64,000 bases of DNA, taken from assembly GCA_900769475.1 (NCBI GenBank), contig CAAGGQ010000230.1, positions 519 to 64,518 on the forward strand. The letters are read 5' to 3'. Both the position numbers and the translations under genes were made by a program. A model generated the notes under the pieces. That model had not been told where the DNA came from, ran no database searches, and saw only the letters and a list, made by a program, of their open reading frames with translations. This document shows, piece after piece, positions 1 to 33,548 of the stretch (position 1 is its first letter; each line of letters begins with the position of its first letter). This stretch comes from Clostridia bacterium (GTDB taxonomy: Bacteria; Bacillota; Clostridia; Oscillospirales; CAG-272).

Positions 1-2
1 GG

Positions 3-191
3 AAACTATTGATCGACAAGGATATGAAAAAGAAAGACCTTTGCAAGAGCGCAAAGGTTAGTACAGCTACTCTGTCAAAAATGAATAGGGGAGAGTGCGT
101 GAACACAGATGTTCTTTTGAGAATATGTGTTGCACTTCAATGTGAGCCCTCGGATATTATGGAGATCGTCGAGGTTCAAGAAAGGGCATAA
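3..191 (+). CDS. XRE-family helix-turn-helix transcriptional regulator; the 5' end is probably cut by the window edge
   Basis: Translation KDLCKSAKVSTATLSKMNRGECVNTDVLLRICVALQCEPSDIMEI has the typical Cro/C1 HTH layout. The frame stays open to base 3, and the listed start at 9 is TTG. Confidence 0.6.
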   Translation, partial: KLLIDKDMKKKDLCKSAKVSTATLSKMNRGECVNTDVLLRICVALQCEPSDIMEIVEVQERA

Positions 192-272
192 CAACTGATG
201 AGAATAAATGATACTAAATTTGATTTATGTTAAACGGATATAATGCTGAGTAAAAATTTTGGAGGTGGAAAA

Positions 273-2123
273 ATGTCAGATTCCAAAAACAAATTTCAAA
301 TATTTAAAAAAAGATATTTTCCGATCGTTGGAATTTTGTTTTTAATTTTGCTTGCCGTTTTTTTGCTATGGTTCAATAATAGCGCCAGCCTGCAAGCCGA
401 ACCGGCTTTAATAGCGCAGGTGTATTTTGATGGCGAGTATCGAATTGAGGACGGTGAGTGGCATAAGATAGTGAAGGATGAACATATTCCGGCTACAAAA
501 GGTGATGTCACCTTACGAGGCAATTTTCATATGCTTGATCCGGAAGGCGGGTATGTTGGTATTTATAGAGGAGACTTGCCGATTGCATTCTATACAAATC
601 ATATTAATTTAACATTTTTTGAGGGGGAGAACGAACCCTTTGTTATTGATATGGAAAACCCTTTGTACGGAGATTCCGTATGCGGTGAAGGCTGGTCTGC
701 TTGCTTCCTTACAAGTGAAAGTGAGGAGCAGGTTGAGATCCTCGTTCATAATCCTCACAGCTATGGAAACGAAACCGCCATCGACGAAATGCTTTCCTCG
801 ATGGCTTTTTGGACAGGGATTGAGTTCGAAAAGGGCGTTTTGAGCAGAGGTGAGCCACAGAGAAATGCGGGGATGCTATTGATGCTCATTTCTATCGTGT
901 TCCTCGGTATTGCATTGTTTTCAAGTCTAATACACATAAAAAATAATAAAATCGTTTGGTTGCTCGGAGCAGTGGTTTTGTTTGCAGGCTCCTACGTTGC
1001 ATACAGCGCGGACGGCGTTTCATTTTGGAGTGAATCAATCGTGACCAACACTACAATCTTGGGAGCGTCAATGATGTTCTATATGCTGTTCCTCTTGATG
1101 ATTGTCGCACATCTGTTGAAAACAACGAAAAAGATTGCTAACTGTACGATGATTATTTTGGGCGCGGCAAACGCAGTATTCTTTATTTTACCGATGATAA
1201 CCGATGTGTACTTTTACAATACGTGGATTTGGTGGATTGCTATGCAGCTTATGGCAAACATTGTGTTTGTAGCTTGTTTGATAAAAGAGCTGATAACCAT
1301 AAATGGAAAAGAACGCTGGCTATATATTAGTGTCTTTCTTCCTTTACTCGCTTTTGCCGGTGACATTATTGGAACGTGGCTGGGGGCTTGGCAGGGCGGT
1401 GTTATTTCCCAATATGTTTTTGTTGTTTTATTTGCCGTAGCAATGATTATGATTCTCAAGCTAATTCCTCACAGCATAAATGTAGCTACCAAGGCAAAAG
1501 AGCTTGAGATGGAAAAAATAGTTCTTAACGCAGAGCTTGCCGAGAGTAGAATCTCTACGATGATAAGCCAGATCCGACCTCACTTTATTTATAATACGCT
1601 TGGCAGCATTGAGCAGCTATGTAAGCTGGATCCTCCAAAGGCGGGAGATCTTGTGCACAACTTTGCCAAATATCTCCGAGGCAATTTCGGGGAACTCGAT
1701 AATCCCAAACCAATTTTAATGTCGAAGGAAATGGAGCACGTACACCACTACATCAGTATTGAAAACGTGCGATTTCCGGATATGACCTTCACGTTTGAAA
1801 TGAATTCCGAGGACTTCCACATCCCTGCGCTGACAGTTCAGCCAATCGTTGAAAATGCGATCAAGCACGGCTTAATGAAGCTTCCACGAGGCGGAACAAT
1901 TCACGTGGTTTCCTACGAGACCGAAACGGATTACTGCATTTCAGTGGTAGACGACGGTGTAGGATTTGATACGAGTGCGCTGATAGATGAGAGAAAGCAC
2001 GTGGGACTTCGCAACATTCGTGAACGACTTAAGGTGATGGTAAACGGTAAGCTGGAGATTGAAAGCACCGTAGGTGTCGGTACCAAGGTGTTGGTAACTA
2101 TTCCAAAGGAGGTGAGCAGATGA
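273..2123 (+). CDS. Sensor histidine kinase: N-terminal TM, about 170-aa extracellular domain, multi-TM block (7TMR-DISM-like), LytS/YesM-type His_kinase and HATPase_c
   Basis: RPHFIYNTLGSI (phospho-acceptor His box), QPIVENAIKHG (N box), DDGVGFD and GLRNIRERL (G boxes). About 7 hydrophobic helices lie between residues 200 and 410. GGAGG sits 7 nt before the ATG at 273, so it is preferred over the track start at 243. Confidence 0.85.
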   Translation: MSDSKNKFQIFKKRYFPIVGILFLILLAVFLLWFNNSASLQAEPALIAQVYFDGEYRIEDGEWHKIVKDEHIPATKGDVTLRGNFHMLDPEGGYVGIYRGDLPIAFYTNHINLTFFEGENEPFVIDMENPLYGDSVCGEGWSACFLTSESEEQVEILVHNPHSYGNETAIDEMLSSMAFWTGIEFEKGVLSRGEPQRNAGMLLMLISIVFLGIALFSSLIHIKNNKIVWLLGAVVLFAGSYVAYSADGVSFWSESIVTNTTILGASMMFYMLFLLMIVAHLLKTTKKIANCTMIILGAANAVFFILPMITDVYFYNTWIWWIAMQLMANIVFVACLIKELITINGKERWLYISVFLPLLAFAGDIIGTWLGAWQGGVISQYVFVVLFAVAMIMILKLIPHSINVATKAKELEMEKIVLNAELAESRISTMISQIRPHFIYNTLGSIEQLCKLDPPKAGDLVHNFAKYLRGNFGELDNPKPILMSKEMEHVHHYISIENVRFPDMTFTFEMNSEDFHIPALTVQPIVENAIKHGLMKLPRGGTIHVVSYETETDYCISVVDDGVGFDTSALIDERKHVGLRNIRERLKVMVNGKLEIESTVGVGTKVLVTIPKEVSR

Positions 2124-2893
2124 TAGCAATAGCAGTGGATGATGAAGCATTGATGCTGGGCGCTTTGGTATCAGCCATCGAGGCATCGCCCGATATTACA
2201 GAGGTCGCAAAGTTTTCCGACTGTGAAGAGGCACTTGCGTTTGTTCAAAACCACCCCACAGATATTGCCTTTTTGGATATCAATATGCGTGGTATGGGGG
2301 GACTTGCGCTTGCGAAAAGAATTATCGCGTCCTGCCCAAATTGTAAGATCGTATTTTGCACCGGATATGAAGAATACGCCATTCCCGCGTTCAAGCTTCA
2401 CGCTTCGGGGTATTTGATGAAGCCGATTGCGGCGGAAGACGTACAGGGTGAGATTGACAATATTAAAGGAATTCATCAAAAGGCAAAGCTACTTACCGTG
2501 AAATGCTTCGGTAATTTTGAGGTTTACGCGAAAAACGAAGTGCTTGTTTTCAAACGTTTAAAGACGAAGGAGCTATTTGCATTTCTCGTAGACCGAAACG
2601 GAGCGGGAATGACGGCAAAGCAAATATGTGCAGTACTGTTTCCGGACGATACGGATGATACGAAGAATTCGGCGTATCTTCGTCAGCTTATAATGGACTT
2701 GAAGAACACCTTAAAGGCGGTTGGTGCGGAGAGCGTTTTGTGTCACGAGACTCCTTGTTACCGTGTTGATACCGATCTGATCAAGTGTGATTATATTAGT
2801 TATATTGAAACCGGCAAGCCTGATTTTCACGGTGAATATATGACACAGTACAGTTGGGCAGAGGAAACCTGCGCCATGCTTCTATTTAAATAA
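2120..2893 (+). CDS. Response regulator: REC domain plus SARP/OmpR-like winged-helix DNA-binding domain
   Basis: The N-terminus IAVDDE...DIAFLDINMRGMGG...GYLMKP is a receiver domain. The C-terminus KCFGNFEVY...KTKELFAFLVDRNGAGMTAKQICAVLFPD...YLRQLIMDLKNTL...CYRV resembles SARP-type wHTH. ATGA start/stop overlap with the kinase gene. Confidence 0.85.
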   Translation: MIAIAVDDEALMLGALVSAIEASPDITEVAKFSDCEEALAFVQNHPTDIAFLDINMRGMGGLALAKRIIASCPNCKIVFCTGYEEYAIPAFKLHASGYLMKPIAAEDVQGEIDNIKGIHQKAKLLTVKCFGNFEVYAKNEVLVFKRLKTKELFAFLVDRNGAGMTAKQICAVLFPDDTDDTKNSAYLRQLIMDLKNTLKAVGAESVLCHETPCYRVDTDLIKCDYISYIETGKPDFHGEYMTQYSWAEETCAMLLFK

Positions 2894-2900
2894 CGATCAA

Positions 2901-2937
2901 AGAGCGGCAGAAAAATTTTCTGTCGCTCTTGCTTTTT
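2901..2937 (+). terminator. Intrinsic terminator of the kinase/regulator operon
   Basis: 10-bp stem agagcggcag/ctgtcgctct (one G-U pair), 9-nt loop, followed by tgcttttt. Confidence 0.6.
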
Positions 2938-2970
2938 GTAACATCTTTGTAATGCCTGTGGTAGTATAAT
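2935..2970 (+). promoter_or_regulatory. Box-A promoter: TTTGTAACATC-TTTGTAATGCC, 8 nt, TATAAT
   Basis: Tandem 11-bp-phased direct repeat in place of a -35, followed by a consensus -10 at 2965-2970. Same architecture as 4926-4961 and 5014-5048. Confidence 0.45.
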
Positions 2971-2976
2971 GTATCT

Positions 2977-3221
2977 ATGGACAGAAAAAATTAACAATAT
3001 TACATGCCAACGACTTTCACACTCAGATCAGCTTTAAGATAGCAAAGGACCATACCCCTCGTGGGGGGGGGGATTTCATTGCTTTCAGGATATATAAAAA
3101 AGTTCGCAGTACTGATACTAACGGGGGGGAAAAGAAAAATACGAGAACATTCAAAAGATATGCACCTCCAAAAAAAGATCGTTTTTTGGGGTGCATATCA
3201 ACTGGGGTTCTCGTGTTTTTT
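2977..3221 (+). ncRNA. Candidate ORF-less transcript (about 245 nt) between the box-A promoter and a strong hairpin terminator
   Basis: Bounded by a promoter-like element and a terminator. No ORF with a Shine-Dalgarno sequence. Contains G10 (3063-3072) and G7 (3123-3129) tracts. Confidence 0.3.
3141..3221. terminator. Long bidirectional hairpin terminator shared by the candidate transcript (+) and the GGDEF gene (-)
   Basis: Inner stem gatatgcacc (3157-3166) pairs with ggtgcatatc (3190-3199) and is extended by A7/T6 pairing. Outer stem acgagaac/gttctcgt. T6 run at 3216-3221 on + and a U-rich tract on -. Confidence 0.6.
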
Positions 3222-4797
3222 AGTTGTTTAAAGCTTTCATGATTCTTTTATCTTTGTACATTTCGCGATCTGCGCGCTCAAAAACGTTTGAAAAATGAGT
3301 ATCCTTTTCGGGATCAAATTCGGAAAACCCCTTAGCAATACTTATGGGAAGCGTTACGTTGTTTTTATCTACGTAAGTCATTGCGCATTCCAAATCCAAT
3401 TTTGCAAGCAGCTTTTCCTTATCTTCCAGATCTTTGTTTTGGAGGAGTACCAGAAATTCATCGCCGCCGATTCTGAACACAGGACTTCTTTTGAATGTCT
3501 CGGAAATAACTCGGGAAGCGGTTACGATGAGCTCGTTGCCAAAGATATGGCCGTATGTATCATTGATTTCTTTGAGGCCGTTTATATCAAGGACTACAAC
3601 ACCGAATGAAACACCCCCTGCTTCAATTTTTCTATCAAATTCAATTCCCCACTCTTTGAAGGAGGTAGTGTTTCTCAATCCCGTCAATGAGTCACGGTGT
3701 ACAAGACGGTGTTGAAGGGTTTTATGCTCGCGCAAATTCACGATCATATTTTCAAACGCGGTGCTAAGCAAATTGATCTCCCGTATGTTGCTATAAGTGA
3801 TTTCAACGTCGTAATCTCCCTTTGATAGCATAACCGAGGCATCGGTCAATTTTTTTAATGGGTTTACGATCTTTTTGACCATAAAAATTACAAGCAAAGA
3901 AAATACAAAAGCAAATAAAAGAACGATAAACAGTATCTTGTAAGCTATTTCATAACGTATCTGCCTTATATCATCGTAGCTGGCGGAGAGAACAAGCGTC
4001 ATTCCGTTAGCCAAATCCGCTGATACTCGCAGATATTCTTCCGCATTGTCGCACAAGTTTGTAATACTCGCACTTTCGGTACCGTTATGTATTACAACAT
4101 TGTTCAGCTCAAGGTGCGCAAATCCGTTCTCATAAATTTTGATCCTTTGAACTATTTTGATTAAAACCGTGTAATCAAAATCCATACCCACAACGCCGAT
4201 AAACAAATTTTCGTGATATAGGGGTACAACATAGGAGATCATCAGGATGTTGTTGTTTTGATTGTAGTACGGAGCCATCCAAACGGGCTTACCCGCTTCA
4301 TAAGGCTGCCAATACCATCCGACGTGCTCAGTATCTTCTTTATCGTAAAGGGAAAGATCTGTAGGTGCAAAGCGGACGTAGTCATCGCCACCGTCTATTT
4401 TACTGTAGAACACACCGGCTGTGCTGTCCGATATGGCGGGATTTAAGCGCAAATAGTAGGCAATTGCACCCTTCGTATCTTTTGCTACGTTAACAAACAT
4501 TTTATCCGCAAATTGAATGGCTTCATTTTGCTTGTCTCGGTTTCTGATGTCTGCTGCGCTGTCAAAAAATGACAGCATGTAGTTTTCCATAATCCTTACC
4601 GATTTTTCCATATCTCCAAAGGTATTATTGATCTTTGTTGCTTCGTTTTCGCACATGACTTCTATAAGATTTTGTGTTTGGTTTTGAATATATTTGTCCA
4701 CCTCATAAATACTGAATCCACCCACAAAAACCGTGACAGTCAGTATTGCGGACATGACGATTATAAGAAATCTAAACTGTAAAGAATGTTCTTTCAT
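3220..4797 (-). CDS. Sensor diguanylate cyclase (N-terminal TM, Cache-like periplasmic domain, TM, HAMP, GGDEF)
   Basis: RIGGDEF active-site motif, preceded by DSLTGLRN and VVVLDINGLKEINDTYGH. Two TM segments flank an about 270-aa extracytoplasmic domain. SD AAGGGAGAG lies upstream of the ATG. Confidence 0.9.
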   Translation of the reverse strand: MKEHSLQFRFLIIVMSAILTVTVFVGGFSIYEVDKYIQNQTQNLIEVMCENEATKINNTFGDMEKSVRIMENYMLSFFDSAADIRNRDKQNEAIQFADKMFVNVAKDTKGAIAYYLRLNPAISDSTAGVFYSKIDGGDDYVRFAPTDLSLYDKEDTEHVGWYWQPYEAGKPVWMAPYYNQNNNILMISYVVPLYHENLFIGVVGMDFDYTVLIKIVQRIKIYENGFAHLELNNVVIHNGTESASITNLCDNAEEYLRVSADLANGMTLVLSASYDDIRQIRYEIAYKILFIVLLFAFVFSLLVIFMVKKIVNPLKKLTDASVMLSKGDYDVEITYSNIREINLLSTAFENMIVNLREHKTLQHRLVHRDSLTGLRNTTSFKEWGIEFDRKIEAGGVSFGVVVLDINGLKEINDTYGHIFGNELIVTASRVISETFKRSPVFRIGGDEFLVLLQNKDLEDKEKLLAKLDLECAMTYVDKNNVTLPISIAKGFSEFDPEKDTHFSNVFERADREMYKDKRIMKALNN

Positions 4798-4925
4798 GAT
4801 CTACTCTCCCTTTCCTACCATTGTATCGCAATCAACGGGAATAGTTGATGTATTTATTTCTACCATGGAATGCATCTTTTGTTCACATTTGTTTTGAAAT
4901 GTGGTTGGAAATTTGTTTACCTTAT

Positions 4926-4961
4926 ATATTAACATATCGAGCGTTACAAATGTGTTACAAA
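4926..4961 (-). promoter_or_regulatory. Box-B promoter of the GGDEF gene: TTTGTAACACA-TTTGTAACGCT, 8 nt, TAATAT (read on the minus strand)
   Basis: Same tandem box and same 8-nt gap to the -10 as box A. TGn extended -10 (TGTTAATAT). Predicted 5' UTR of about 120 nt. Confidence 0.45.
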
Positions 4962-4963
4962 CT

Positions 4964-5005
4964 TTCGAAAAATCGAAATATTTGAAAAAATGAAAAAAGT
5001 CGAAA
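4964..5005. repeat. Five phased T(C/T)GAAA A-tract repeats between the divergent box-B and box-C promoters
   Basis: tcgaaa 4965, tcgaaa 4973, ttgaaa 4982, tgaaaa 4991, tcgaaa 5000. Spacing is 8-9 bp. Confidence 0.4.
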
Positions 5006-5013
5006 GCCTTAAT

Positions 5014-5048
5014 TTTGTAACACCTTTGTAACACGTGGGGGTACTAAT
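5014..5048 (+). promoter_or_regulatory. Box-C promoter: TTTGTAACACC-TTTGTAACACG, 7 nt, ACTAAT
   Basis: Third copy of the tandem box. The -10-like hexamer is weaker and 1 nt closer than in boxes A and B. Confidence 0.4.
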
Positions 5049-5066
5049 GTGTTTCAGGAGAAACCG

Positions 5067-5102
5067 ATGAAAACACTTTACTACGATTATGAATATAAAT
5101 GA
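5067..5102 (+). CDS. Candidate 11-aa ORF MKTLYYDYEYK
   Basis: AGGAGA (5056-5061) lies 5 nt upstream of the ATG. It sits between the box-C promoter and the terminator at 5178-5235. Too short for any statistical or homology support. Confidence 0.25.
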   Translation: MKTLYYDYEYK

Positions 5103-5177
5103 GTATCTAACAGGCAGATATCTCCTTCAAGCGCCCGAGATCCTCCGCTTGACCGAGGAGCGCATGAAAGAACGATT

Positions 5178-5235
5178 TCCCCCGACGCATTTGTCAAGGA
5201 ATGATGATGCGTCGGGGGATTTCTTTTTATTTTTA
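5178..5235 (+). terminator. Strong intrinsic terminator
   Basis: 13-bp perfect stem tcccccgacgcat/atgcgtcggggga, followed by tttctttttattttt. Confidence 0.75.
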
Positions 5236-5264
5236 TTGCAAAGGGGAGGGGAATGTGGTATAAT
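5236..5264 (+). promoter_or_regulatory. SigA-type promoter of the histidine phosphatase gene
   Basis: TTGCAA, 17 nt, TGgTATAAT (extended -10). Confidence 0.55.
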
Positions 5265-5295
5265 AGAGTGAAACTAGGAGAGAAGGAAGTTTACC

Positions 5296-5940
5296 ATGCA
5301 AACCACCCTATATTTGATCCGCCACGGAGAATCCGAGGCCAACCGCAGAAACACCTTTTTGGGCCATTACGACCTGGGCTTGACCGATACCGGACATCGG
5401 CAGGCCGAGATCACCGCGGCGTATTTGGTTGAACATCTTTGCCCGGACGCCATCTATTCCAGCGACCTTTCCAGAGCCTATCAAACGGCATGCCCTGCGG
5501 CCGAGCACTTTGGGTTGCCCATTCACAAGGATCCGGCACTTCGAGAGATTATGGCGGGCAAGTGGGAGAATGTTCCCTTTGCCGAAATTGCCGTGCGCTA
5601 TCGAGAGAGCTACCACACCTGGCTGACTGATATTGGAAACGCTCATCCCGATGAAGGCGAAAGCGTTCTGGCGCTGCAGGAGCGCATCGTTGCCGCCGTG
5701 ACCCGCATTGCCATGGCACATCCCGGAAAAACAGTGCTGATCTTTACCCACGCCACTCCCGTGCGCGTGCTGGCGGCGCATTGCCAAAACACGCCAATGA
5801 ATGAAATCAAGGACATCCCCTGGGTCACCAATGCGTCGGTTACCAAGGTGGTTTTTGACGGAGAAAAACTCTCCCTGGCCGACTACGGACGGGATGATTT
5901 TATGGGCAGCATGACCACGCGGCTGGCCGACAACGTTTGA
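5296..5940 (+). CDS. Histidine phosphatase family protein (phosphoglycerate mutase / alpha-ribazole phosphatase-like)
   Basis: The N-terminal LIRHGESEAN catalytic RHG motif and later THATPVR are typical of the dPGM/CobC branch. Confidence 0.85.
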   Translation: MQTTLYLIRHGESEANRRNTFLGHYDLGLTDTGHRQAEITAAYLVEHLCPDAIYSSDLSRAYQTACPAAEHFGLPIHKDPALREIMAGKWENVPFAEIAVRYRESYHTWLTDIGNAHPDEGESVLALQERIVAAVTRIAMAHPGKTVLIFTHATPVRVLAAHCQNTPMNEIKDIPWVTNASVTKVVFDGEKLSLADYGRDDFMGSMTTRLADNV

Positions 5941-5960
5941 GGGAAAGGATCTAAAGAATT

Positions 5961-6521
5961 ATGGCAAAGATCCATCCTTGGTTGCATTTTAAAACCGTCA
6001 CCCGTCATCGGCACCGGGTCATTGCCCATTGCCGTCGTGCAGGCATTGGTTGGCAGGGATTGCTTCACGATCTTTCCAAATACTCCATGACCGAATTTCT
6101 GCCCGGGATGCGCTATTACCAGGGGACAAGTAGCCCCAACGAGCGGGAGCGCGAGTTGTTTGGCTATTCCGCCGCCTGGCTCCATCACAAGGGACGCAAT
6201 CGACACCATTTTGAATACTGGAACGATCTGAATCCAAAAACCAAGATGTACGAGCCGGTTCCCATGCCAGTGCGTTACGTAAAGGAAATGTTTTGCGATC
6301 GCGTGGCCGCCAGCAAGATCTACCAGGGCAAGAATTATACCGATCAACACCCGCTGGAGTACTTTCTTCGAGGAAACGCCCGCAAAAAGATGCATCCTTC
6401 CACCGCCGATCTGCTGGAGGAATGGCTGCGCATGTTGGCCGAGCAGGGCGAGCCGGTAACCTTTGCCCACATCAAGAAGATCTCCAACCAAATGCAATAT
6501 TCCAAGAATGCGGAGGAATGA
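5961..6521 (+). CDS. Conserved hypothetical protein with an HD-like motif (resembles the DUF5662 family)
   Basis: LLHDLSKY and WLHHKGRNRHHFEYW histidine-rich motifs. The family assignment is from memory only. Confidence 0.45.
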   Translation: MAKIHPWLHFKTVTRHRHRVIAHCRRAGIGWQGLLHDLSKYSMTEFLPGMRYYQGTSSPNERERELFGYSAAWLHHKGRNRHHFEYWNDLNPKTKMYEPVPMPVRYVKEMFCDRVAASKIYQGKNYTDQHPLEYFLRGNARKKMHPSTADLLEEWLRMLAEQGEPVTFAHIKKISNQMQYSKNAEE

Positions 6522-6588
6522 ATTTTCTCTGCAATCAAGAAACCCGCGACCCCGTAAAATATCCACGGAGTCGCGGGCTTCATTTCAT

Positions 6589-7524
6589 TTAGAGCATTAT
6601 TTCGGAATTGGCCTTAATAACTACACCTTCACCATCAATCTTAACGTAGAGATCCACGGGAGAGGGATTTACGAGCTTTTCTTCGGTGATCTGCACGGCC
6701 TTTATTGCATCCTCGTAGTCAAAGATCTCTCCAACAGAGGCGTACCAGAAGTCCTTTGGACGGTTGCCGTACTTGTCGCAGAAGTCGATGAGAACGTCCC
6801 AGCAATCGGCGTTCTCAAAGTCGTGGGAGTGAACGCCAAAGCAGAAGAATTTCAGCTCGCCGTCATCAGTAAGGGCATCGTACTGCGCGCCACATTCCTC
6901 CATGCAGGTGCAGTTGGCGTTGTAGCTCCAGGTCATACGATCTGCGGGGAGGGCAAAATTGGTGGTATCCTTCACACATCCTGTCTTGCGGATCGAGCGG
7001 TAGCCTTGCTTTTTCAAGCCTTCAAAGACAACCTCGTTGGCTTGCGCACCATAGGGCCAGACAAAATCCTTGATGGTGCCTTTTCCAAAGACCCTTTCCA
7101 GTTCCTCGGTAGCATCCAGGGCGCAGGTAAGATACTTTTCGTCGGTTGCCACGTGCCACCACCTGTTGCGGGGGACTTCGTTACCCCAATAAAGGTTATC
7201 TTCCTCCGCGTGATAAAGGTAAGCGGGATCGGCGGTCGTCTTATCAAAAGCCTCCTCCGAAATCGGACGAAGGGGCATTTTAGGAGTGAATGCCATGGGA
7301 TGATATTTGCAGTGGTTGGAGATTTCATATCCTTTGTAAAAGGCGACGTATTCCTCGGGCGTGCCGCGCTTCAGGGGCGTGTTGAGATTGAAGGTACCCT
7401 TGAGTCCTGCGGGCTCGGTGATGTCGAGGAACTTTCTGTCCAGCTTCAGATTGCCGTCGTCAATGGTAAAGGTGATGCTTTTACGAACCCAACCGGGGAA
7501 GAAGTTCAAATCGATTTGTTTCAT
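6589..7524 (-). CDS. Polysaccharide deacetylase (NodB-homology) family protein
   Basis: ITFTIDDG motif near the N-terminus, and HSHDF later. SD AGAGAGGA lies 6 nt before the ATG at 7524. The 67-codon upstream extension in the track is Arg-rich and was rejected. Confidence 0.75.
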   Translation of the reverse strand: MKQIDLNFFPGWVRKSITFTIDDGNLKLDRKFLDITEPAGLKGTFNLNTPLKRGTPEEYVAFYKGYEISNHCKYHPMAFTPKMPLRPISEEAFDKTTADPAYLYHAEEDNLYWGNEVPRNRWWHVATDEKYLTCALDATEELERVFGKGTIKDFVWPYGAQANEVVFEGLKKQGYRSIRKTGCVKDTTNFALPADRMTWSYNANCTCMEECGAQYDALTDDGELKFFCFGVHSHDFENADCWDVLIDFCDKYGNRPKDFWYASVGEIFDYEDAIKAVQITEEKLVNPSPVDLYVKIDGEGVVIKANSEIML

Positions 7525-7778
7525 GATTGGTCCTCTCTTAAAGATGAAAATTGCAATACTCCTTAGCCACTTTTCTCTTTGACACCGTAGGTGCAAATGA
7601 GAAAAGGCTCCGCAAGCTCCGCCACAATCGCGAGCGATTGCCAAGCTTGCAAAAGAGAAACGCCGTTTATGGGTTTTCACGCTCTGCGGAGCGCGAGGAG
7701 GGCTTCGCGCCCTCCACCTGCGCAAACTTTTGAAAAAGTTTGATCAAGACTTTTGCTGCACAAAACTTGGTGTTTTGT

Positions 7779-10181
7779 TTAGCTTCTGAGCTCCAGACCC
7801 AGCTTGAATTTCAAGTCATTCAAGATCTTTTTGGAAACCTTGTCGGCTTCTTCCACCGTCAGAGTGCGATCTGCGGCACGAAGGGTTACACGGAAGGAAA
7901 CCGATTTCTTGCCCTCGCCCACCTGTGCACCGCGGTAGAGGTCGAACAGGTTCACGTTCTCTACCAGGTTTCCGCCGGCCTTGGCCATGGTGCTCTCAAT
8001 GGAGCCAACTTCCATTTCTTCGTTGCAAACAAAGGAGAAGTCACGGGTCGTGGCGGGGTACTTGGGCAGGGACTTGTAGGCCTTTTTCATGTTGGACTTT
8101 TCAAAAATACCGTCAAAATCCAGCTCGGCGATCATCACGGGCATGGAAAGATCGTAGTTTTGAGCCATGAGGGGATGAGCCTGACCAAAGATACCAAGCA
8201 CCGTGCCGTCCTCTGCCAGGATCTGAGCACATCTGCCGGGATGGTAAGCGGGATGCTCGCTGTAGGCGGCATAGGAGGCCTTGATTCCGGCCAGGGCAAG
8301 GATGTTCTCGCAAATGCCCTTGAGAACGTAGAAATCGGTGCTTCCGTAAGCGCCTACCGTCATGATCATCTTCTCGTCGGGCAGTTCGTTGACCGATTCC
8401 TTGGGAAGATAGATCTTGGCGATCTCAAAAAGAGTTACGTCTTCGTTGTTAAAGTTATTGTTGCGGGCAACCACTTCCATCATGGAGGGAAGGGCGGTGG
8501 TGCGCATCACGCTGGTGTCTTCGCCCAAGGGGTTGGAGATCACCACCGAGCGGCGCAGAGGATCGTTCGCGGCCATGCGAACCTTATCGTAATACTTGGG
8601 ACTGATGAAGGAGAAGGTGTGGATCTGAGAGGCTCCCATGCCCACCATTGCTTTTTCCACGTTGACCTCAAACTGCTGCTTGGCAGTTCTGCCGCCCAGG
8701 GTGGTTTGTGCATTCATAGTGGAGGATTCGATCTTATCGTAGCCGTAAACGCGGCAGACCTCCTCGGCAATATCGTTCATGCAGGCCAGATCGGAGCGGA
8801 AGGAAGGAACGTAGATCTTTCCGTCCTCAACACGGCAGCCCAGACCCTTCAGGGTGTTGATCATGTGCTCCTCGGGAATGTTCATGCCCAGGAATTCGTT
8901 GTATCTTGCGGGGGTGAAGGGAAGTACCGTTTGTTCTGCCTTGGTGGGGTAAACGTCAATGATGCCGTCCACCACGTCACCGGCGCCCAAAAGCTCTACC
9001 AGCTCGCAGGCGCGTTCCAGACCTGCCATGCAGTTCTCGGGATCCAGCCCCTTTTCAAAGCGAGCCGAGGATTCGGTACGCATGCCGTTCTTCTTTGCGG
9101 TCACACGAACCGACGCACCGTTAAAGCAGGCCGATTCGAATACCACGGTGGCGGTATCGTCCAGGATCTCGGAGTTGGCTCCGCCCATCACGCCTGCCAG
9201 AGCGCAGGCCTTTTTGCTGTCGGCAATCACCAGCATGGTATCGTCCAGGATGTGATCTATATCATCCAGGGATTTGAAGGCCTCGCCCTTTCCGGCGCGG
9301 CGTACGTCGATGGCGGCTCCGTCCAGGCACTTGTAATCAAAGGCATGCATGGGTTGGCCGTATTCCAGCATGACGTAGTTGGTAATATCAACGATGTTGT
9401 TGATGGGACGAACTCCCGACGCGCGCAGACGCATCCGCATCCACAGAGGCGAGGGCGCGATCTTTACGTTCTTCACTACTCTTGCACAGTAGCGGTAGCA
9501 GAGATCGGGGGCCGAGATCTTTACACCCAGGTAGTTCTCGATCTTGTCACCGTCTCCCGCACCCTTGACCATAGGAGCCTTTACCGTCAGCTCTTTATCA
9601 AAGGATACGGCGGTTTCCCGTGCCAGACCAATGACCGAAAGACAATCCGGGCGGTTGGAGGTGATTTCAAACTCTACCGAGGTATCCTTCAGCATCAGTA
9701 CGTCGCGAATGTCGTCGCCCAGGCGATCGGCACAATCCTCGTCCAGGATCAGAATACCGTTCTCTTCCTTGCCGGGGCACTCGTGGGGCGTCAGCTCCAA
9801 TTCGGCCATGGAGCAGAGCATACCGTTGGACTCCACGCCGCGGAGCTTGCCGGCCTTGATCACCACATCCCCGGGGAGCTTTGCCACGGGAAGGGCGGCG
9901 GGCACCAGAGCGCCCACAAATACGTTCTGCGCACCGGTCACGATCTGAATGTCATGTCCGTGTACATCACCTGCATCCAGCTTGCAGATCCACAGGTGAT
10001 CCGAGTTGGGATGCTTTTCCATGGCGGTCACCTTGGCTACCACCACGTTTTCAATATTGCTGCCAAGCTCTTCAAAGCCTTCTACCTTGGATCCGGTAAT
10101 GGTCAGCCGGTCGCAGTAGGTCTTATTATCGATTTCTTCAACGTGAACGAAATCGGAAAGCCAATTTCTGGAAAGATTCAT
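7779..10181 (-). CDS. pheT: Phenylalanine--tRNA ligase beta subunit
   Basis: 800 aa. N-terminus MNLSRNWLSDFV, with tRNA-binding, B3/4, B5 and FDX-ACB layout. Sits immediately downstream of pheS. Confidence 0.95.
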   Translation of the reverse strand: MNLSRNWLSDFVHVEEIDNKTYCDRLTITGSKVEGFEELGSNIENVVVAKVTAMEKHPNSDHLWICKLDAGDVHGHDIQIVTGAQNVFVGALVPAALPVAKLPGDVVIKAGKLRGVESNGMLCSMAELELTPHECPGKEENGILILDEDCADRLGDDIRDVLMLKDTSVEFEITSNRPDCLSVIGLARETAVSFDKELTVKAPMVKGAGDGDKIENYLGVKISAPDLCYRYCARVVKNVKIAPSPLWMRMRLRASGVRPINNIVDITNYVMLEYGQPMHAFDYKCLDGAAIDVRRAGKGEAFKSLDDIDHILDDTMLVIADSKKACALAGVMGGANSEILDDTATVVFESACFNGASVRVTAKKNGMRTESSARFEKGLDPENCMAGLERACELVELLGAGDVVDGIIDVYPTKAEQTVLPFTPARYNEFLGMNIPEEHMINTLKGLGCRVEDGKIYVPSFRSDLACMNDIAEEVCRVYGYDKIESSTMNAQTTLGGRTAKQQFEVNVEKAMVGMGASQIHTFSFISPKYYDKVRMAANDPLRRSVVISNPLGEDTSVMRTTALPSMMEVVARNNNFNNEDVTLFEIAKIYLPKESVNELPDEKMIMTVGAYGSTDFYVLKGICENILALAGIKASYAAYSEHPAYHPGRCAQILAEDGTVLGIFGQAHPLMAQNYDLSMPVMIAELDFDGIFEKSNMKKAYKSLPKYPATTRDFSFVCNEEMEVGSIESTMAKAGGNLVENVNLFDLYRGAQVGEGKKSVSFRVTLRAADRTLTVEEADKVSKKILNDLKFKLGLELRS

Positions 10182-10197
10182 GTTTGTTTACCTCCTA

Positions 10198-11211
10198 TCA
10201 GAACTGGTCGAGGAAGCGTTCGTCGTTTTCATAGAACAAACGAATGTCGTCGATGCCGTAACGGGTCATGGCAATGCGCTCCAGACCCAAGCCAAAGGCA
10301 AATCCGGAGTATTCCTCGGGATCAATGCCGCAGTTAGAAAGAACGAAGGGATGCACCATGCCGGCGCCCAGGATTTCGATCCAACCCTCGCCCTTGCACA
10401 GGCGACAACCCTTGCCACCACAAACGAAGCAGGAAACATCTACTTCTGCCGAGGGCTCGGTGAAGGGGAAGTGGTGTGGACGGAAGCGGATGCGGGTGCT
10501 CTCACCAAAGAGCTTCTTTGCAAAGATCTCCAAGGTTCCCTTCAGATCGCCCATGGTAATGCCCTTGTCAACCACAAGACCCTCCAGCTGATGGAACAGG
10601 GGAGAGTGGGTAGCGTCCAAAGCGTCGGAGCGGTATACGCGACCGGGGGAAATGATGCGGATCGGAGGCTTTTGATGCTCCATGGTACGTACCTGCACCG
10701 GGGAGGTTTGGGAGCGCAGAAGTACATTTTCGCCAATATAGAAGGTGTCCTGGGTATCTCTTGCAGGGTGGTTTTCGGGAATGTTCAGCGCTTGGAAGTT
10801 ATAGTAATCCAGCTCTACCTCGGGGCCTTCTACGATGGAGAAGCCCATACCGATAAAGATGTCCTCCAGCTCTCTTTGTACCTGGGTCAGAGGATGAATG
10901 TGACCCACGGGAGCTGCCTTGGCAGGCATAGTAACGTCCAGCTTTTCGGCCTTCAGTTTTTCTTCCAGGGCTTTGGCCTGCTTTTGCTGCGCCATCACAG
11001 CAAGGGCGTTTTCAATGTCGGCGCGCACTTCATTGGCAAGTTGGCCAATGATGGGGCGTTCCTCGGCACTCAGGGCACCCATGCCGCGCAGAACCGCGGT
11101 AAGTTCGCCTTTTTTGCCAAGATATTTGATTTTGATCTGTTCGGGATCGGCACCTTCTGCATGGATCTGCTCCAGGGCTTCGTTCCGAATACGAGAAAGC
11201 TTTTCTTTCAT
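10198..11211 (-). CDS. pheS: Phenylalanine--tRNA ligase alpha subunit
   Basis: [23 protein letters not shown] and GAGMVHP class II motifs. The start at MKEKLSRI (ATG 11211) lies downstream of the T-box terminator. Confidence 0.95.
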
Positions 11212-11524
11212 TTGGGAGAATCTTCCTTTCTTTTTTTGTGTTTTTGTTCGGGCAGGGCAATAAAAAAAGCCCGTCCCAAGATCAGGACGAGGCGAAAAAC
11301 GCTCGCGGTACCACCCGAATTCCGAAGGGAGTCCCTTCGACACTCTTTGACGGATAACGGTGTCGGCCGTATCGAACTACACACAAGTTTCCTTGCTTTC
11401 CTCCGATCAACTCCGAAGCGAAATGCACAAGCCGAAAAGGGTACGCCGCTTACAGCCGGGGCGGCACTCTCTGAAACGCCTTTGCAACGGTTGGCAAACT
11501 TCATCACAGTCTTTCTTTCTACAT
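11212..11524 (-). promoter_or_regulatory. T-box leader (tRNA-Phe-responsive riboswitch) of pheST
   Basis: The minus strand reads AATTCGGGTGGTACCGCG (11321-11304), the conserved T-box sequence. An AGAGA box is at 11473-11465. A terminator stem and U7 run lie at 11300-11262. Candidate UUC specifier codons are at 11422-11415. Confidence 0.8.
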
Positions 11525-11530
11525 TTATAT

Positions 11531-11559
11531 AGTATAGCATATCTTTGCGCGTTTTGCAA
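11531..11559 (-). promoter_or_regulatory. SigA-type promoter of the pheST leader
   Basis: Minus strand TTGCAA, 17 nt, TGcTATACT. Confidence 0.6.
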
Positions 11560-11569
11560 GTGCTTTTTG

Positions 11570-11610
11570 AAAAAAAAACGAAAAAAGGAACCGACGGTAA
11601 CGTCGGTTCC
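11570..11610 (-). terminator. Intrinsic terminator of the peptide-binding protein gene
   Basis: Stem ggaaccgacg/cgtcggttcc, GTAA loop, long U-run on the minus strand (A-run 11570-11586 on +). Confidence 0.7.
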
Positions 11611-11619
11611 TTAATAAAA

Positions 11620-13770
11620 TTATTTCGTTTCTTCGGGTTCTACGTAGCCCTTCTTGCTCCAATCCACAGCGGGGAAGCCTTCCAGAACCGGAACGTAATC
11701 CTGGTAATCCTTCAGGTTGGTCTTGCGGAAGTAAGCGGGAATGTAGTAGGTAGAAGATACCTTGGTCAGCTCATCGCTTACCAGAACGGCATTCTCGTTG
11801 AATACCACGGGGATCACGGGCATATCCTTGAGCAGCACCTCTTCTGCCTTGTGGAGCAGGATGGACTTCTGCTTGGTCCACTCGGAAGCCTTGGTGGTGG
11901 GGGTAATACCGTTGGCTTCGTAGATAGCCTTGATCTTGTTGTAGAGAGTCTTGAATTCCTCAGCGGTGTCGTACAGACCCAGGAAGCTGGAGCTCTCCTC
12001 GGTCAGGGAAGCAAAGTAGGGAATATAGTAGATGGCTTCCATCAGATCGTTGTACTCCTGGCTGGTGTAGCCGGTGCTGTTGGGGGTGAGGGCGTACTCA
12101 CCGTCCACCAACTGCAGAGCCATACCCGAGAAGGAGTTGGCAAAATTGGAGAGCATGGAGTAAGCGTCGGCAGAGAAGGCGTTGTAATCAAAGGCGATCA
12201 CTTCGTACTTGTTTCTCTGAATGGATTCGATAAACAGATCGTCGCAAACATCGTTGGGAACCGAGGCGGTTTCCTTGTAGTAGTCGTTGTTGGTGATCAC
12301 GAAGATCTCTTCCATGGTTACGTTAAAGCCAAGCTCCTGCCAAGCGGCAACGATCATCTTGGTAATGGCAACATTTACTTCGTCATTGCCGGCAACCTTT
12401 ACGGTAAAGGTGTACTTGGAGGGGGTAATGCCTGCGGCGGTCAAGAGCTCCTGCGCCTTGGCAATGTTCTTGGAGGTGGCGATCAGATCACCGCCCTCGG
12501 TGCGGAATTCCTTCTTCTTGTTGTTGGTTTCGAAAACGCCGGGGCAAACCAGACCGGTAGCGGCCTTGGCGTAAACCACAGCCTCTGCAATGGCCTGACG
12601 GTCGATGGCCAGGGACAGAGCGTTGCGAACATTGGCATCGGCGAACAGCTTGGAGCCGTCACCGCCGTCATTGATCAGAGCGTTCTCGTTCATGTAAAGA
12701 ACGAAGGTGGAGAGTGCGTTGGTGGTCTGTACGTTTTCCTTTACAAAGGCGTCACCGCGCAGGGAAAGGGGAATGTTACCAACGTAGAAGATGCGGCCGG
12801 CCTTGTACTCCTCCAGGAGCTGAGCCTCGGTCATGGAGCAATCCACCAGAATACGGTAGTTGGTAACCGATTCGTCGATGGAATCTCTCTCGGTATCACG
12901 GTAGTAGTATACGTTTCTTTCCAGGTAGAAGAAGTTGATCTTCTTACGAACGTAGGAGCCGCTGCCAATGGTGCCCTTTTCTACGTCCTCCTCCAGGCCG
13001 TAGTAGCCTTCGTCAAAGGCGTAGTCATCCTCAACCTTTACTTCGATCTCCTGGCCTTCTACAACTTCACCCTTGGAGTTGAGCAGAGGCTCGGTCACGT
13101 CCTTGTAGTTGATCTTACCGATCTTGTAGGCACCGCTGGTTACCATGGTGGAGGGCTTCTTTGCCCAGTCTGCATTCTTGGTAACGTAGTTCTCGTAAAG
13201 CGGAGCGGTAGCAACGCTAGTCAGATTCAGAAGGAACTGATCGTAATCGATGGGACCTTCAAAGGTGATCTTTACCACGTTGATTGCTACGGCCTCAACG
13301 CCCAGATCGTCAATGGAAACGTCGCCTTCCTTGATGGCACGAGCGTTCTTGATGTCGTAGAGCAGAGAAGCTGCCGCAAAGTTATTGTTGGAGTTTACCA
13401 AACGCTTCCATGCAAACACAACGTCATCGGCACTCAGCTGGGTACCGTTGCTCCAGCAGGTCTCGTTCAGAATCAGCTCCATGGTGTATTCGTTCTTGGT
13501 AGGATCTTCTACAATCTTGTATTCCTCAACCAAGGATTCCTTTACCTTGCCATCCTTATCCAGGGTAAAGAGGGTATCAAACAGGAGGCCCACGATGTTG
13601 AGGGAATCCTTGTTGTAATACGCGTTGGCGGGATCAAAATCAAAGGTGTCGCTGGTCAGATACATGGTGATGTATGCGCCAACGTCATCATCGTCCTTTT
13701 TCGCACAGGAAGCGAAGCAGGGAATGAGCATGAACGCGCACAGAAGAAGTGCAATGATCCGTTTTGACAT
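11620..13770 (-). CDS. ABC transporter substrate-binding lipoprotein, family 5 (peptide/nickel type)
   Basis: Signal peptide with lipobox MSKRIIALLLCAFMLIPCFASC. The size (716 aa) and overall composition resemble oligopeptide-binding proteins. AGGAGGA lies upstream of the ATG at 13770. Confidence 0.8.
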   Translation of the reverse strand: MSKRIIALLLCAFMLIPCFASCAKKDDDDVGAYITMYLTSDTFDFDPANAYYNKDSLNIVGLLFDTLFTLDKDGKVKESLVEEYKIVEDPTKNEYTMELILNETCWSNGTQLSADDVVFAWKRLVNSNNNFAAASLLYDIKNARAIKEGDVSIDDLGVEAVAINVVKITFEGPIDYDQFLLNLTSVATAPLYENYVTKNADWAKKPSTMVTSGAYKIGKINYKDVTEPLLNSKGEVVEGQEIEVKVEDDYAFDEGYYGLEEDVEKGTIGSGSYVRKKINFFYLERNVYYYRDTERDSIDESVTNYRILVDCSMTEAQLLEEYKAGRIFYVGNIPLSLRGDAFVKENVQTTNALSTFVLYMNENALINDGGDGSKLFADANVRNALSLAIDRQAIAEAVVYAKAATGLVCPGVFETNNKKKEFRTEGGDLIATSKNIAKAQELLTAAGITPSKYTFTVKVAGNDEVNVAITKMIVAAWQELGFNVTMEEIFVITNNDYYKETASVPNDVCDDLFIESIQRNKYEVIAFDYNAFSADAYSMLSNFANSFSGMALQLVDGEYALTPNSTGYTSQEYNDLMEAIYYIPYFASLTEESSSFLGLYDTAEEFKTLYNKIKAIYEANGITPTTKASEWTKQKSILLHKAEEVLLKDMPVIPVVFNENAVLVSDELTKVSSTYYIPAYFRKTNLKDYQDYVPVLEGFPAVDWSKKGYVEPEETK

Positions 13771-13838
13771 GGTACTGTAAATCCTCCTAATAATAAAGAA
13801 ATCGGAATTCGGCGTCAAGGCGCCATATGTACCCCTAT

Positions 13839-13867
13839 ATTATATACTATTTTTCATCCGATTTCAA
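13839..13867 (-). promoter_or_regulatory. SigA-type promoter of the substrate-binding protein gene
   Basis: Minus strand TTGAAA, 17 nt, TATAAT. Confidence 0.5.
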
Positions 13868-13888
13868 TAGATTCCCAAATCTTTTCGT

Positions 13889-13918
13889 GTATATTTTGTT
13901 AATTTTCTTGCCAAAGTA
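13889..13918 (+). promoter_or_regulatory. Possible forespore (SigG/SigF-type) promoter of gpr
   Basis: GTATA, 18 nt, CAAAGTA compared with the SigG consensus GHATR-N18-CATNNTA. About 35 nt upstream of the RBS. Confidence 0.3.
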
Positions 13919-13958
13919 AGGTTAAAATTTACTTTTTTACGAAACGTGGAGGGGAAAA

Positions 13959-14843: not shown

Positions 14844-14925
14844 GCGGGGAATGGCATAAAGACGCGCCGCGCCGCATAGAGTGAAGCAGACGCGGCCCGG
14901 AGCCGCGCGGGGAAGGAGAACGAAG

Positions 14926-15981: not shown

Positions 15982-15985
15982 AAAA

Positions 15986-16016
15986 CACGGCCGTTGACGT
16001 TGCGTCAACGGCCGTG
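15986..16016. terminator. Bidirectional hairpin terminator
   Basis: 14-bp perfect stem cacggccgttgacg/cgtcaacggccgtg. An A-run upstream supplies the U-tract for the minus-strand gene. Confidence 0.6.
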
Positions 16017-18223: not shown

Positions 18224-19594
<1,371 letters not shown>

Positions 19595-33436: not shown

Positions 33437-33548
33437 TTTTTGTAACTTCCTTTCTCCGCAAGGGGGACTTGCGGCTTTTTTGTTCTATTATAGCTCTTCT
33501 ATGCGAAATAATTTGTCGGATTCTCTGTAAAAGAGAAAAATATCTGTT

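Follow-up and report, generated by a model that had tools for sequence, protein, structure and literature searches.

Regulators of the PhoB/OmpR type, once phosphorylated, bind head-to-tail at two direct repeats spaced by one helical turn, about 10 bp ahead of the −10 element, at promoters without a −35. LytTR regulators, which work with LytS- or AgrC-type kinases (LytSR, AgrCA), bind 9-bp repeats about 21 bp apart. SARP activators follow a rule of 11-bp direct repeats in which 8 bp separate the 3′ repeat from the −10 and the first 8 bp of each repeat are contacted (PMC10936776). COG3947 joins a CheY-like receiver to a SARP DNA-binding activator, and its Deinococcus member is an orphan with no linked kinase (PMC3564903). 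In the COG3947/SAPR literature that we searched, an operator, regulon or signal is described for no member, and our literature search for the regulator type and box motif treated here found no functional study.

[quoted passage not shown] Our best explanation, with a probability of about 70 per cent, is that the box is the operator of this RR. SARP activators (AfsR, ActII-ORF4, DnrI and their relative EmbR) give the best structural and profile match to the RR DNA-binding domain, and the sites share with theirs the 11-bp direct repeats that overlap or replace the −35, the 8 bp between the 3′ repeat and the −10, conservation in the first 8–10 bp and, presumably, two protomers per operator. Unlike in SARPs, the domain sits behind a phospho-receiver that is paired with a LytS/YesM-type kinase, and only ~45 residues follow the winged helix; the hosts are Clostridia with sigma-A TATAAT promoters, and surface and c-di-GMP genes take the place of antibiotic clusters as targets. 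PhoB/OmpR regulators share the REC plus winged-helix layout and provide the second tier of structural matches, but the RR falls below the Trans_reg_C threshold, its REC is nearest to the LytR/BtsR type, its cognate kinase is of class PF06580 and not HisKA, and it has a C-terminal helical extension as in SARPs. LytTR systems share the PF06580 kinase class and the REC lineage with the HK–RR pair, along with direct-repeat operators and divergent promoter pairs beside regulator genes (as at agr P2/P3); the winged-helix output domain and the 11-bp repeat period set the RR apart from them. The RR also fits COG3947, a category that is an annotation label only, and JGI names its close homologues 'two-component SAPR family response regulator'.

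Table 1. Features of the HK–RR locus and the three tandem-box sites (window positions).
Feature	Position	Strand	Evidence or details
Sensor histidine kinase (HK)	273..2123	+	Pfam His_kinase (PF06580) 1.9e-18, HATPase_c 5.7e-09
Response regulator (RR)	2120..2893	+	REC, SARP-type winged helix, ~45 residues aligning with start of BTAD
Terminator of HK–RR operon	2900..2930	+	14-pair stem, terminator scan; T-tract extends into site A box 1
Site A	2935..2970	+	boxes 2935-2944 (TTTGTAACAT), 2946-2955 (TTTGTAATGC); PWM 36.9
Decayed 5′ part of 5′-nucleotidase/metallophosphoesterase gene	2977..3135	+	tblastx, blastn to intact relatives
Hairpin between relic and 3′ end of GGDEF gene	3158..3198		read from sequence
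dCache/MCP-like PDC–HAMP–GGDEF diguanylate cyclase	3220..4797	−	Pfam GGDEF 2.2e-24, HAMP, MCP-like_PDC_1; NCBIfam
Site B, predicted promoter of GGDEF gene	4926..4961	−	boxes 4961-4952, 4950-4941; PWM 53.3, near family maximum
Site C, divergent from B	5014..5048	+	boxes 5014-5023, 5025-5034; PWM 15.6
11-codon ORF MKTLYYDYEYK	5067..5102	+	behind AGGAGA; identical in conspecific L081
Strong hairpin (CCCCCGACGCAT...ATGCGTCGGGGG) with T-tract	5179..5236	+	fold −56.4 kcal/mol, z = −3.5; sequence read

The kinase and the response regulator

The HK reading frame opens at 243, and the start is probably the ATG at 273, behind GGAGGTGG. Hydropathy indicates a first TM helix, a ~155-aa extracytoplasmic segment and ~6–7 more TM helices ahead of the His_kinase and HATPase_c domains. 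The preliminary description had spoken of a surface sensor; the extracytoplasmic segment and ~7 TM helices are present, but residues 1–430 lack a recognizable sensor domain and stay without a Pfam match at thresholds up to E ≤ 10. A 7TMR-DISM identity for this N-terminus was considered and dropped, as nothing in the sequence supports it. In all seventy-two loci with a long HK match (72/72), the HK gene directly precedes that of the RR and shares its strand.

The REC domain of the RR (Pfam Response_reg, 3.2e-21) has D7, D8, D53, T81 and K101 in place, and only this part of the protein matches the BtsR and LytR models. From the single sequence, Pfam and NCBIfam did not identify the output domain, and a PDB sequence search returned REC matches only. 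Trans_reg_C (PF00486) reaches 12.2 bits in the window protein, where the cut-off is 26.2, and is matched by 29 of 42 family members, at a best E of 8e-6. A profile of the C-terminal family reaches EmbR (2fez, E = 1.4e-4) and AfsR (8hvr, 4e-4) ahead of OmpR-type regulators, with the EmbR alignment stopping near EmbR residue 122. An AF2 model of the C-terminal domain from 42 diverse relatives had a pLDDT of 96.5; a full-length model from 35 close homologues (pLDDT 47) was set aside. The top six Foldseek matches to the C-terminus are all AfsR or EmbR (E 1.7e-5 to 8e-4, 112–168 aligned columns) and include the AfsR SARP domain in a transcription initiation complex and EmbR at TMq 0.75, followed by PhoB/OmpR domains (1gxp, 1qqi and others), with PhoB effector domains at TMq ~0.5. 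Pfam finds no BTAD in the window RR or in the 42 family members, and no LytTR (PF04397) in the RR.

As predicted from these profiles and models, the output domain is a winged helix of the SARP/OmpR type, in agreement with what had been proposed from the sequence, and more narrowly of the SARP subtype, but without a complete BTAD (~150 aa). With a CheY-like receiver ahead of a SARP-type DNA-binding region, the protein is of the COG3947 type. The BTAD of AfsR makes many RNAP contacts, and because the RR does not have a complete one, its mechanism of activation may differ from that of AfsR.

Tandem boxes in the window and the units behind them

A search with TTTGTAAYNNNTTTGTAAY, allowing up to 2 mismatches, found exactly three matches to TTTGTAAY-N3-TTTGTAAY in 64 kb, at 2935 (+), 4961 (−) and 5014 (+), all no more than 2.1 kb from the RR gene. 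Shuffled windows held a mean of 0.09 matches, and none of 100 shuffles reached three. The single 8-mer occurs seven times where 1.16 copies are expected, with isolated copies at 33439 and, inside enolase, at 18576. Scored with a 36-position PWM built from sites of other genomes only, the three sites reach the values listed in Table 1, and the rest of the window stays below 8. Each box pair is upstream of a −10. A consensus promoter scan reports none of the three sites, and none has a usable −35; the TTGTAA of box 1 and box 2 would stand 23 and 12 bp from the −10, respectively.

These searches bear out most of what the preliminary description had read by eye, namely the three tandem sites with their quoted sequences, the lack of a further tandem copy in the 64 kb, the single copies at 33439 and in eno, and the placing of the boxes where a −35 would be. 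On the distance between box and −10, which it called near-identical, sites A and B have the canonical offset, and site C has a spacer 1 nt below the family norm. The start sites it predicted (2977, 4919 and 5055) fall on position 43 of the family alignment described below, where purines are enriched. As targets it had named a GGDEF cyclase and two tiny terminator-bounded units. The cyclase stood up as a recurrent target, found in eight loci and each time with a box, but the tiny units turned out to be a decayed nucleotidase gene (site A) and an orphan promoter with an 11-codon ORF (site C).

Site A has an 8-bp gap between the 22-bp unit and its −10 (TATAAT, 2965–2970), a predicted TSS at ~2977, and neither a TG nor a −35. 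Its position behind the operon terminator recurs in many orthologous loci. The sequence that follows reads ...KKLTILHANDFH.QISFKIAKD...GGISLLSGYIKK..., with frameshifts and poly-G tracts, and shows indels relative to the conspecific L081. Intact relatives were found with tblastx and blastn in five loci (L015, L018, L029, L035 and L037); in the first four, a 499-aa 5′-nucleotidase/metallophosphoesterase gene is intact behind a box of the site A type, and the L018 gene matches Pfam Metallophos and 5_nucleotid_C. On this comparison, unit A is a frameshifted N-terminal relic of such a gene. The hairpin that separates it from the GGDEF gene is probably a shared terminator; it was not called by the terminator scan, and the segment is kept beside the end of the GGDEF gene in L001 and L006.

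Site B has a TG at 4934–4933, a −10 (TAATAT) at 4931–4926 and a predicted TSS at ~4919, which leaves a 5′-UTR of ~120 nt. The GGDEF motif is intact in the translated gene ('RIGGDEFLVLL'), and by this motif the product qualifies as a putatively active diguanylate cyclase; no RxxD I-site was seen in it. Orthologues stand behind a box in seven loci besides the window, and wherever this target gene is kept, its box is kept too.

At site C the −10 is weak (ACTAAT, 5043–5048; TAATAAT at this position in the conspecific contig), 'AC' replaces 'GC' after box 2, and the predicted TSS is at ~5055. The unit consists only of the 11-codon ORF and a terminator, located where GC climbs toward the rest of the window, and has no homologue in the 80 loci by blastn or tblastx. 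The ORF may be a relic, and the hairpin at 5179–5236 would end a predicted transcript of ~175 nt. Unit C is an orphan promoter unit. Rfam has nothing credible in 2890–5300; accordingly, neither of the small units corresponds to a known RNA. Divergent box pairs are also present in L001, L006, L032, L036 and L169.

The box in related loci

We compared 80 orthologous loci (RR 66–90 per cent identical, 795 kb), or about ninety when further ones are counted. At least one box is present in 74 of the 80, and the other six have none in the sequence at hand. In 64 loci a box lies no more than about 300 nt downstream of the RR stop codon, and in the remaining sixteen there is none directly after the RR. 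At no more than 1 mismatch, the 795 kb hold 96 sites, as against 0–2 in shuffles. Box density falls from 2.29/kb in the 300 nt after the RR to 0.109/kb within 3 kb and 0.024/kb beyond. At 103 of 112 sites, an ORF of 50 aa or more with an RBS before it follows on the same strand within 400 nt.

A frequency matrix of 97 sites shows conservation outside the search pattern, with R-C at positions 9–10, G-C at 20–21, TG at 28–29, TAnAAT at 31–36 (same offset in 79/97) and a purine at 43. The repeat unit of the family is TTTGTAACRC, and TG-n-TAnAAT follows at a fixed offset. Judged by sequence, this layout of two 11-bp repeats at positions 1–22, an 8-bp gap and a −10 at 31–36 is exactly the DNA geometry of SARP sites. 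In geometry, the earlier reading of the repeats as an OmpR/PhoB/SARP binding mode agrees with the published SARP rule (PMC10936776).

RRs with the helix ...YLRQL..DLK... all have TTTGTAAC boxes. A subgroup with YIHQLFRDLR (L074, L076, L079 and L080) has TTTGTAAGAGGTTTGTCAYA boxes, and the L059 RR (YFRHLMQDLR) has TTTGTCATGGGTTTGTCATGC boxes, both at unchanged spacing. By these comparisons, RR lineages that differ in the predicted recognition helix differ in their half-sites and keep the same geometry. If this reading of the helix is true, a change from YLRQL to YIHQLFR would retarget the RR to TTTGTAAG/TTTGTCAY boxes. The lineage changes in the set number only two or three independent ones. 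Among more distant loci (RR 60–67 per cent identical), nine of ten have one box variant after the RR. No box was recognizable in L211 (RR 48 per cent identical), where the contig is short and the downstream gene convergent.

Genes behind the operator in relatives encode Pr6Pr membrane proteins, secreted beta-helix proteins, lipoproteins and a stand-alone receiver protein; capsule operons, SpaA/Cna_B pilus-adhesin operons, GGDEF cyclases and sometimes the HK–RR operon itself are also among the targets. In all, the 22-bp unit precedes more than 30 unrelated gene families in ~90 genomes, and the RR C-terminal domain forms ~1,970 clusters at 50 per cent identity. Other metagenomes contain the exact 21-mer as well, in 11-bp tandem arrays of unrelated context. 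The suggested enrichment of boxes beside orthologous kinase/regulator pairs is borne out (74/80 loci, 64/80 close behind the RR), while the idea of a private regulon is not: the operator, with its half-site variants, is common to a large RR family across gut Clostridia and has many different targets.

Candidate binders, mechanism and meaning

The only other regulator nearby, an HTH_26 gene (9–191), was rejected as the box binder because it is not conserved beside the two-component system, being absent from 79 of 80 loci. The block with the three sites has a GC of ~40 per cent, below the rest of the window. We also dropped the view of this block as a general mobile cassette; the GC of the two-component system tracks its flanks in 26 of 27 other loci, and any acquisition would therefore be specific to this genome.

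A different factor could recognize the boxes, either an ECF sigma factor or an unlinked transcription factor. TGTAAC is the sigma-X-type −35 of Bacillus subtilis and resembles ECF −35 elements generally, and ECF regulons are likewise enriched in envelope genes, as are the targets here. However, the ECF promoter class (an AAC-containing −35 with a CGT-type −10 at 16–17 bp) was rejected, since no CGTC, CGAC or CGTA motif or other CG-rich element is conserved 16–17 bp after either box. What is conserved downstream is instead TG-n-TAnAAT of the sigma-A type, and the two repeats are conserved to an equal degree at an 11-bp period, something a −35 element would not need. No sigma gene is linked, and the boxes track the RR gene in density and co-vary with its helix, which makes another factor very improbable. 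We give even less credence to the three sites being copies of one promoter segment, made by local duplication or carried on a small mobile cassette, with no dedicated regulator. Their closeness (within 2.1 kb) and shared low-GC block would suit such copying, but the sites resemble one another in the 22-bp unit and the −10 only, not in the 8-bp spacer or on either flank, and the unit stands before too many unrelated gene families across genomes. Neither terminal repeats nor a transposase accompany it.

The rival that deserves most attention, though still an unlikely one, is that the RR binds the boxes as a repressor, occluding RNA polymerase from −42 to −21 at promoters that are otherwise constitutive. 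Extended −10 promoters can function without a −35, and most sites have TG-n-TAnAAT, which allows possible activator-independent basal transcription and leaves room for such a role; the binding position overlaps the polymerase footprint, and the RR is without a full BTAD. A repressor would tolerate variable positions, though, whereas the fixed register and −10 distance (the same offset in 79/97 sites) suit an activator that touches RNAP, and the activators AfsR and PhoB use the same geometry. Site A has no TG and no −35, and no −35-like hexamer occurs at 16–18 bp in any of the three sites.

We return to the RR as the probable activator at the boxes, a case that is well supported computationally. 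The analysis itself establishes the sites with their conservation and fixed geometry, how they co-vary with the RR, the RR fold and what the downstream genes are; we infer binding of the boxes by the RR, activation and not repression, dependence on phosphorylation, and the signal. An envelope or extracellular signal would act on the multi-pass LytS/YesM-type kinase, which would phosphorylate D53 of the RR. Two RR molecules would then sit head-to-tail on the two 11-bp repeats (TTTGTAACRCn ×2), from about −42 to −21. Bound there, over the place of the missing −35 and reaching to 8 bp from a sigma-A −10 that is often extended, they may recruit or adapt RNA polymerase in the manner of SARP activators (AfsR) and PhoB. 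In this genome the functional output would be the dCache-HAMP-GGDEF cyclase behind site B, and we propose that the circuit raises c-di-GMP for this reason; site A would now drive only a decayed 5′-nucleotidase gene, and site C an orphan 11-codon unit. Given that the operator of relatives drives surface-protein, capsule, pilus-adhesin and receiver genes, we propose that the system is a cell-surface and lifestyle switch.

For this genome, the prediction is a short circuit that connects an envelope kinase with c-di-GMP synthesis. Two of its three promoters appear stranded before decayed or missing genes, a snapshot of regulon erosion. More broadly, the RR class is common and has so far been an annotation label without a described operator, regulon or signal; a precise candidate operator and predicted TSSs are now supplied. 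The comparisons point to SARP promoter geometry in a Firmicutes two-component regulator and link the system to surface and lifestyle genes of gut and rumen Clostridia, including diguanylate cyclases, capsule operons, pili and adhesins. One tentative generalization, to which we give slightly less than even odds, is that gut Clostridia have a large family of phospho-controlled 'mini-SARPs' (REC, SARP winged helix and truncated BTAD) that carry out SARP-style sigma-adaptation on sigma-A promoters, through the operator TTTGTAAC-N3-TTTGTNAC, which stops 8 bp short of the −10, and serve as a general surface-architecture switch. If true, the switch would cover capsule, SpaA-type pili and adhesins, Pr6Pr membrane proteins and c-di-GMP synthesis; SARP-type activation would extend well beyond actinobacterial antibiotic regulation, and the operator would be a ready regulon predictor for thousands of uncultured gut genomes.

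Tandem boxes in the window and in related genomes

Searching the 64 kb for TTTGTAAY-N3-TTTGTAAY with up to two mismatches returned just three matches, at 2935 (+), 4961 (-), and 5014 (+); dinucleotide shuffles gave a mean of 0.09 matches and never reached three. The preliminary description had likewise listed these as the only tandem copies. Its quoted sequences and positions were all confirmed on re-reading the window, and the isolated 8-mer copies are the two that it named, at 33439 and inside enolase (18576). A PWM trained only on sites from other genomes recovered all three, with nothing above 8 bits in the rest of the 64 kb.

Features around the tandem sites near the response regulator (RR) and its histidine kinase (HK)
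Feature	Position	Strand	Remarks
HTH_26 gene	9–191		
HK	273–2123		Multi-pass, His_kinase/PF06580 class; ~155-aa extracytoplasmic segment
RR	2120–2893		Canonical receiver (D53, T81, K101); C-terminal region not named by Pfam
Site A	2935–2970	+	Canonical layout; PWM score 36.9
5'-nucleotidase/metallophosphoesterase relic	2977–3135		Frameshifted N-terminus
dCache-HAMP-GGDEF cyclase	3220–4797	-	GGDEF motif intact
Site B	4961–4926	-	Canonical layout; PWM score 53.3
Site C	5014–5048	+	Weak -10, spacer 1 base shorter; PWM score 15.6
ORF MKTLYYDYEYK	5067–5102		11 codons, behind site C; strong RBS, then hairpin and strong terminator

A scan of species-representative genomes identified eighty loci with RR orthologues (66–90 per cent identity), all from uncultured gut or rumen Clostridia apart from the label of one MAG. 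That MAG (L045, ‘uncultured Bacteroidales’) has an RR 79 per cent identical to the one in the window and a box as in the Clostridia MAGs, and its label is probably a binning error. The 795 kb of these loci contain 118 boxes with at most two mismatches and ninety-six with at most one (zero to two in shuffles). At least one box is present in 74/80 loci, and in sixty-four a same-strand box lies within ~300 nt after the RR stop. Immediately behind the RR there are 2.29 boxes per kb, compared with 0.109 within 3 kb and 0.024 farther away. Ten further loci, found by a separate route in Eubacterium, Limivicinus, and Emergencia, have RRs that are 48–67 per cent identical, and nine of them carry exactly one box variant, after the RR.

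In an alignment of ninety-seven sites, the bases conserved outside the search pattern are R-C at positions 9–10, G-C at 20–21, TG at 28–29, and a purine at 43, with TAnAAT at 31–36 (identical offset in 79/97). The unit thus comprises a pair of 11-bp repeats (TTTGTAACRCn), 8 bp, and a sigma-A -10, often extended. It includes no usable -35, which agrees with the earlier suggestion that the boxes replace a recognizable one. Most sites (103/112) point at an RBS-preceded ORF at most 400 nt away.

The exact 21-mer TTTGTAACGCTTTTGTAACGC also occurs in seven metagenome contigs (L100, L102, L127, L171, L175, L185, L199). There it forms head-to-tail arrays, (TTTGTAACGCT)n, each made up of at least four to five units of 11 bp and lacking a downstream -10. 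The arrays resemble iterons and seem to have no connection with the promoter module.

Genes behind the boxes

Site B is the predicted promoter of the GGDEF cyclase, orthologues of which lie behind a box in seven other loci. Site A, whose first box is reached by the T-tract of the terminator at the RR gene end, drives no gene; what follows is the relic, and the intact 5'-nucleotidase/metallophosphoesterase (499 aa) lies behind the equivalent box in four loci (L015, L018, L029, L035). Poly-G tracts in the relic (3055–3072, 3123–3129) carry 4-bp indels relative to a 98.6 per cent identical conspecific contig (L081), which fits neutral decay or slippage.

The unit behind site C has no homologue in the eighty loci and no Rfam match, GC climbs from ~40 per cent to over 50 per cent at the site, and elsewhere the GGDEF promoter is paired divergently with a lipoprotein or membrane-protein gene. 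For these reasons site C is most likely an orphaned promoter, with a genuine small peptide or RNA as a less likely alternative. The short ORF, identical in L081, may be a relic or encode either a leader peptide or a small signaling peptide.

The HK has no recognizable sensor domain. The first ATG of its ORF is at 243; a TATAAT (239–244) and an RBS (GGAGGTGG, 261–268) point to the ATG at 273 as the real start. No tandem box lies upstream of the HK-RR operon in the window. Such a box does precede the kinase in three other loci (L013, L029, L039), which suggests autoregulation there.

The block with HK, RR, cyclase, and all three boxes (1–5150) has a GC content of ~38–46 per cent, against 50–62 per cent in the next genes (5300–16000), and its left edge lies beyond the window. 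The flanking His_Phos_1 and DUF5662 genes are present in none of the eighty orthologous loci, and the GC of the system equals that of its flanks in 26/27 other genomes. The block may thus have been acquired recently, and by this genome alone.

Across the related loci, the commonest box targets are a Pr6Pr-family membrane protein (thirteen sites), a stand-alone receiver protein (nine), and the GGDEF cyclase (eight); others are secreted beta-helix proteins (seven), small membrane proteins, lipoproteins, and the HK-RR operon itself (three). The stand-alone receiver (~122–127 aa; L009, L022, L060, L066, L067, L070, L074, L078) could be a phosphate sink or feedback element in the same pathway. In L027, L035, L038, and L047, boxes precede large low-complexity hypothetical proteins that Pfam does not match above its cut-off (e.g. 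MAYELTKNSINNFNKFYGVNISF..., 360 aa), and L027 has up to four such genes in one locus. In loci with RRs that are 60–67 per cent identical (L202–L210), the box is directly followed in some by a capsule operon (CpsB, Wzz, LytR_cpsA_psr), and in others by a signal-peptidase and SpaA pilus operon, a 3,313-aa Cna_B/SpaA adhesin, or a MASE6-GGDEF protein and then VTC/CotH genes.

The response regulator and its proposed operator

The kinase adjoins the RR in 72/72 loci. The only other nearby regulator in the window, the HTH_26 gene, was rejected as a candidate; 79/80 loci lack it. Boxes of the form TTTGTAAC accompany every RR whose predicted recognition helix reads ...YLRQL..DLK..., a YIHQLFRDLR subgroup has TTTGTAAGAGGTTTGTCAYA, and one locus with YFRHLMQDLR has TTTGTCATGGGTTTGTCATGC, a co-variation that represents few independent events; the distance to the -10 is constant among all variants.

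Residues 118–257 of the RR, searched against 1.84 billion representatives, found 1,968 clusters. A profile of forty-two diverse members matched EmbR (1.4e-4) and AfsR (4e-4), both above OmpR-type regulators, and Pfam Trans_reg_C matched 29/42 members. An AF2 model from the same alignment (pLDDT 96.5) had as its top Foldseek matches the AfsR SARP domain, from a transcription-initiation complex, and EmbR (112–168 aligned columns), followed by PhoB/OmpR effector domains (~85–88). These matches thus bear out the SARP/OmpR-like output domain proposed earlier, with SARP nearest, and the model indicates a winged helix of SARP type followed by the first BTAD helices, the complete BTAD being absent. 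Five relatives of this domain (P0124, P0129, P0135, P0149, P0171; ~410–430 aa) have two SARP-like C-terminal copies per chain and may be single-chain ‘dimers’ for a tandem operator.

According to the structural study of AfsR (PMC10936776), SARPs recognize direct repeats spaced by 11 or 22 bp, the 3' one lying 8 bp from the -10. The afs box covers -40 to -19, where the two AfsR protomers each touch the initial 8 bp of an 11-bp repeat. The boxes described here have the same period and the same gap. Based on this match, we propose that two molecules of phosphorylated RR would bind head to tail between about -42 and -21 and activate sigma-A RNA polymerase where the promoter lacks a -35; each of these steps, including the dependence on phosphorylation, is an inference. 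The RR could instead repress at the boxes, a reading that we retain because many sites carry an extended -10 but consider rather unlikely. Reading the box as an ECF-type -35 was rejected, since no CGT-type -10 is conserved among the ninety-seven sites.

The RR differs from the SARP family in lacking a full BTAD, one of its defining features, and from OmpR-type domains in scoring under the Pfam threshold. Regulators of this kind are annotated as COG3947, ‘SAPR family’, a category for which our literature search found no paper giving an operator, regulon, or signal. The RR is predicted to act in the manner of a SARP or PhoB-type regulator. The ‘private regulon’ proposed in the preliminary description holds only in part: the sites are local within the window, but the operator itself is common to a large RR family.
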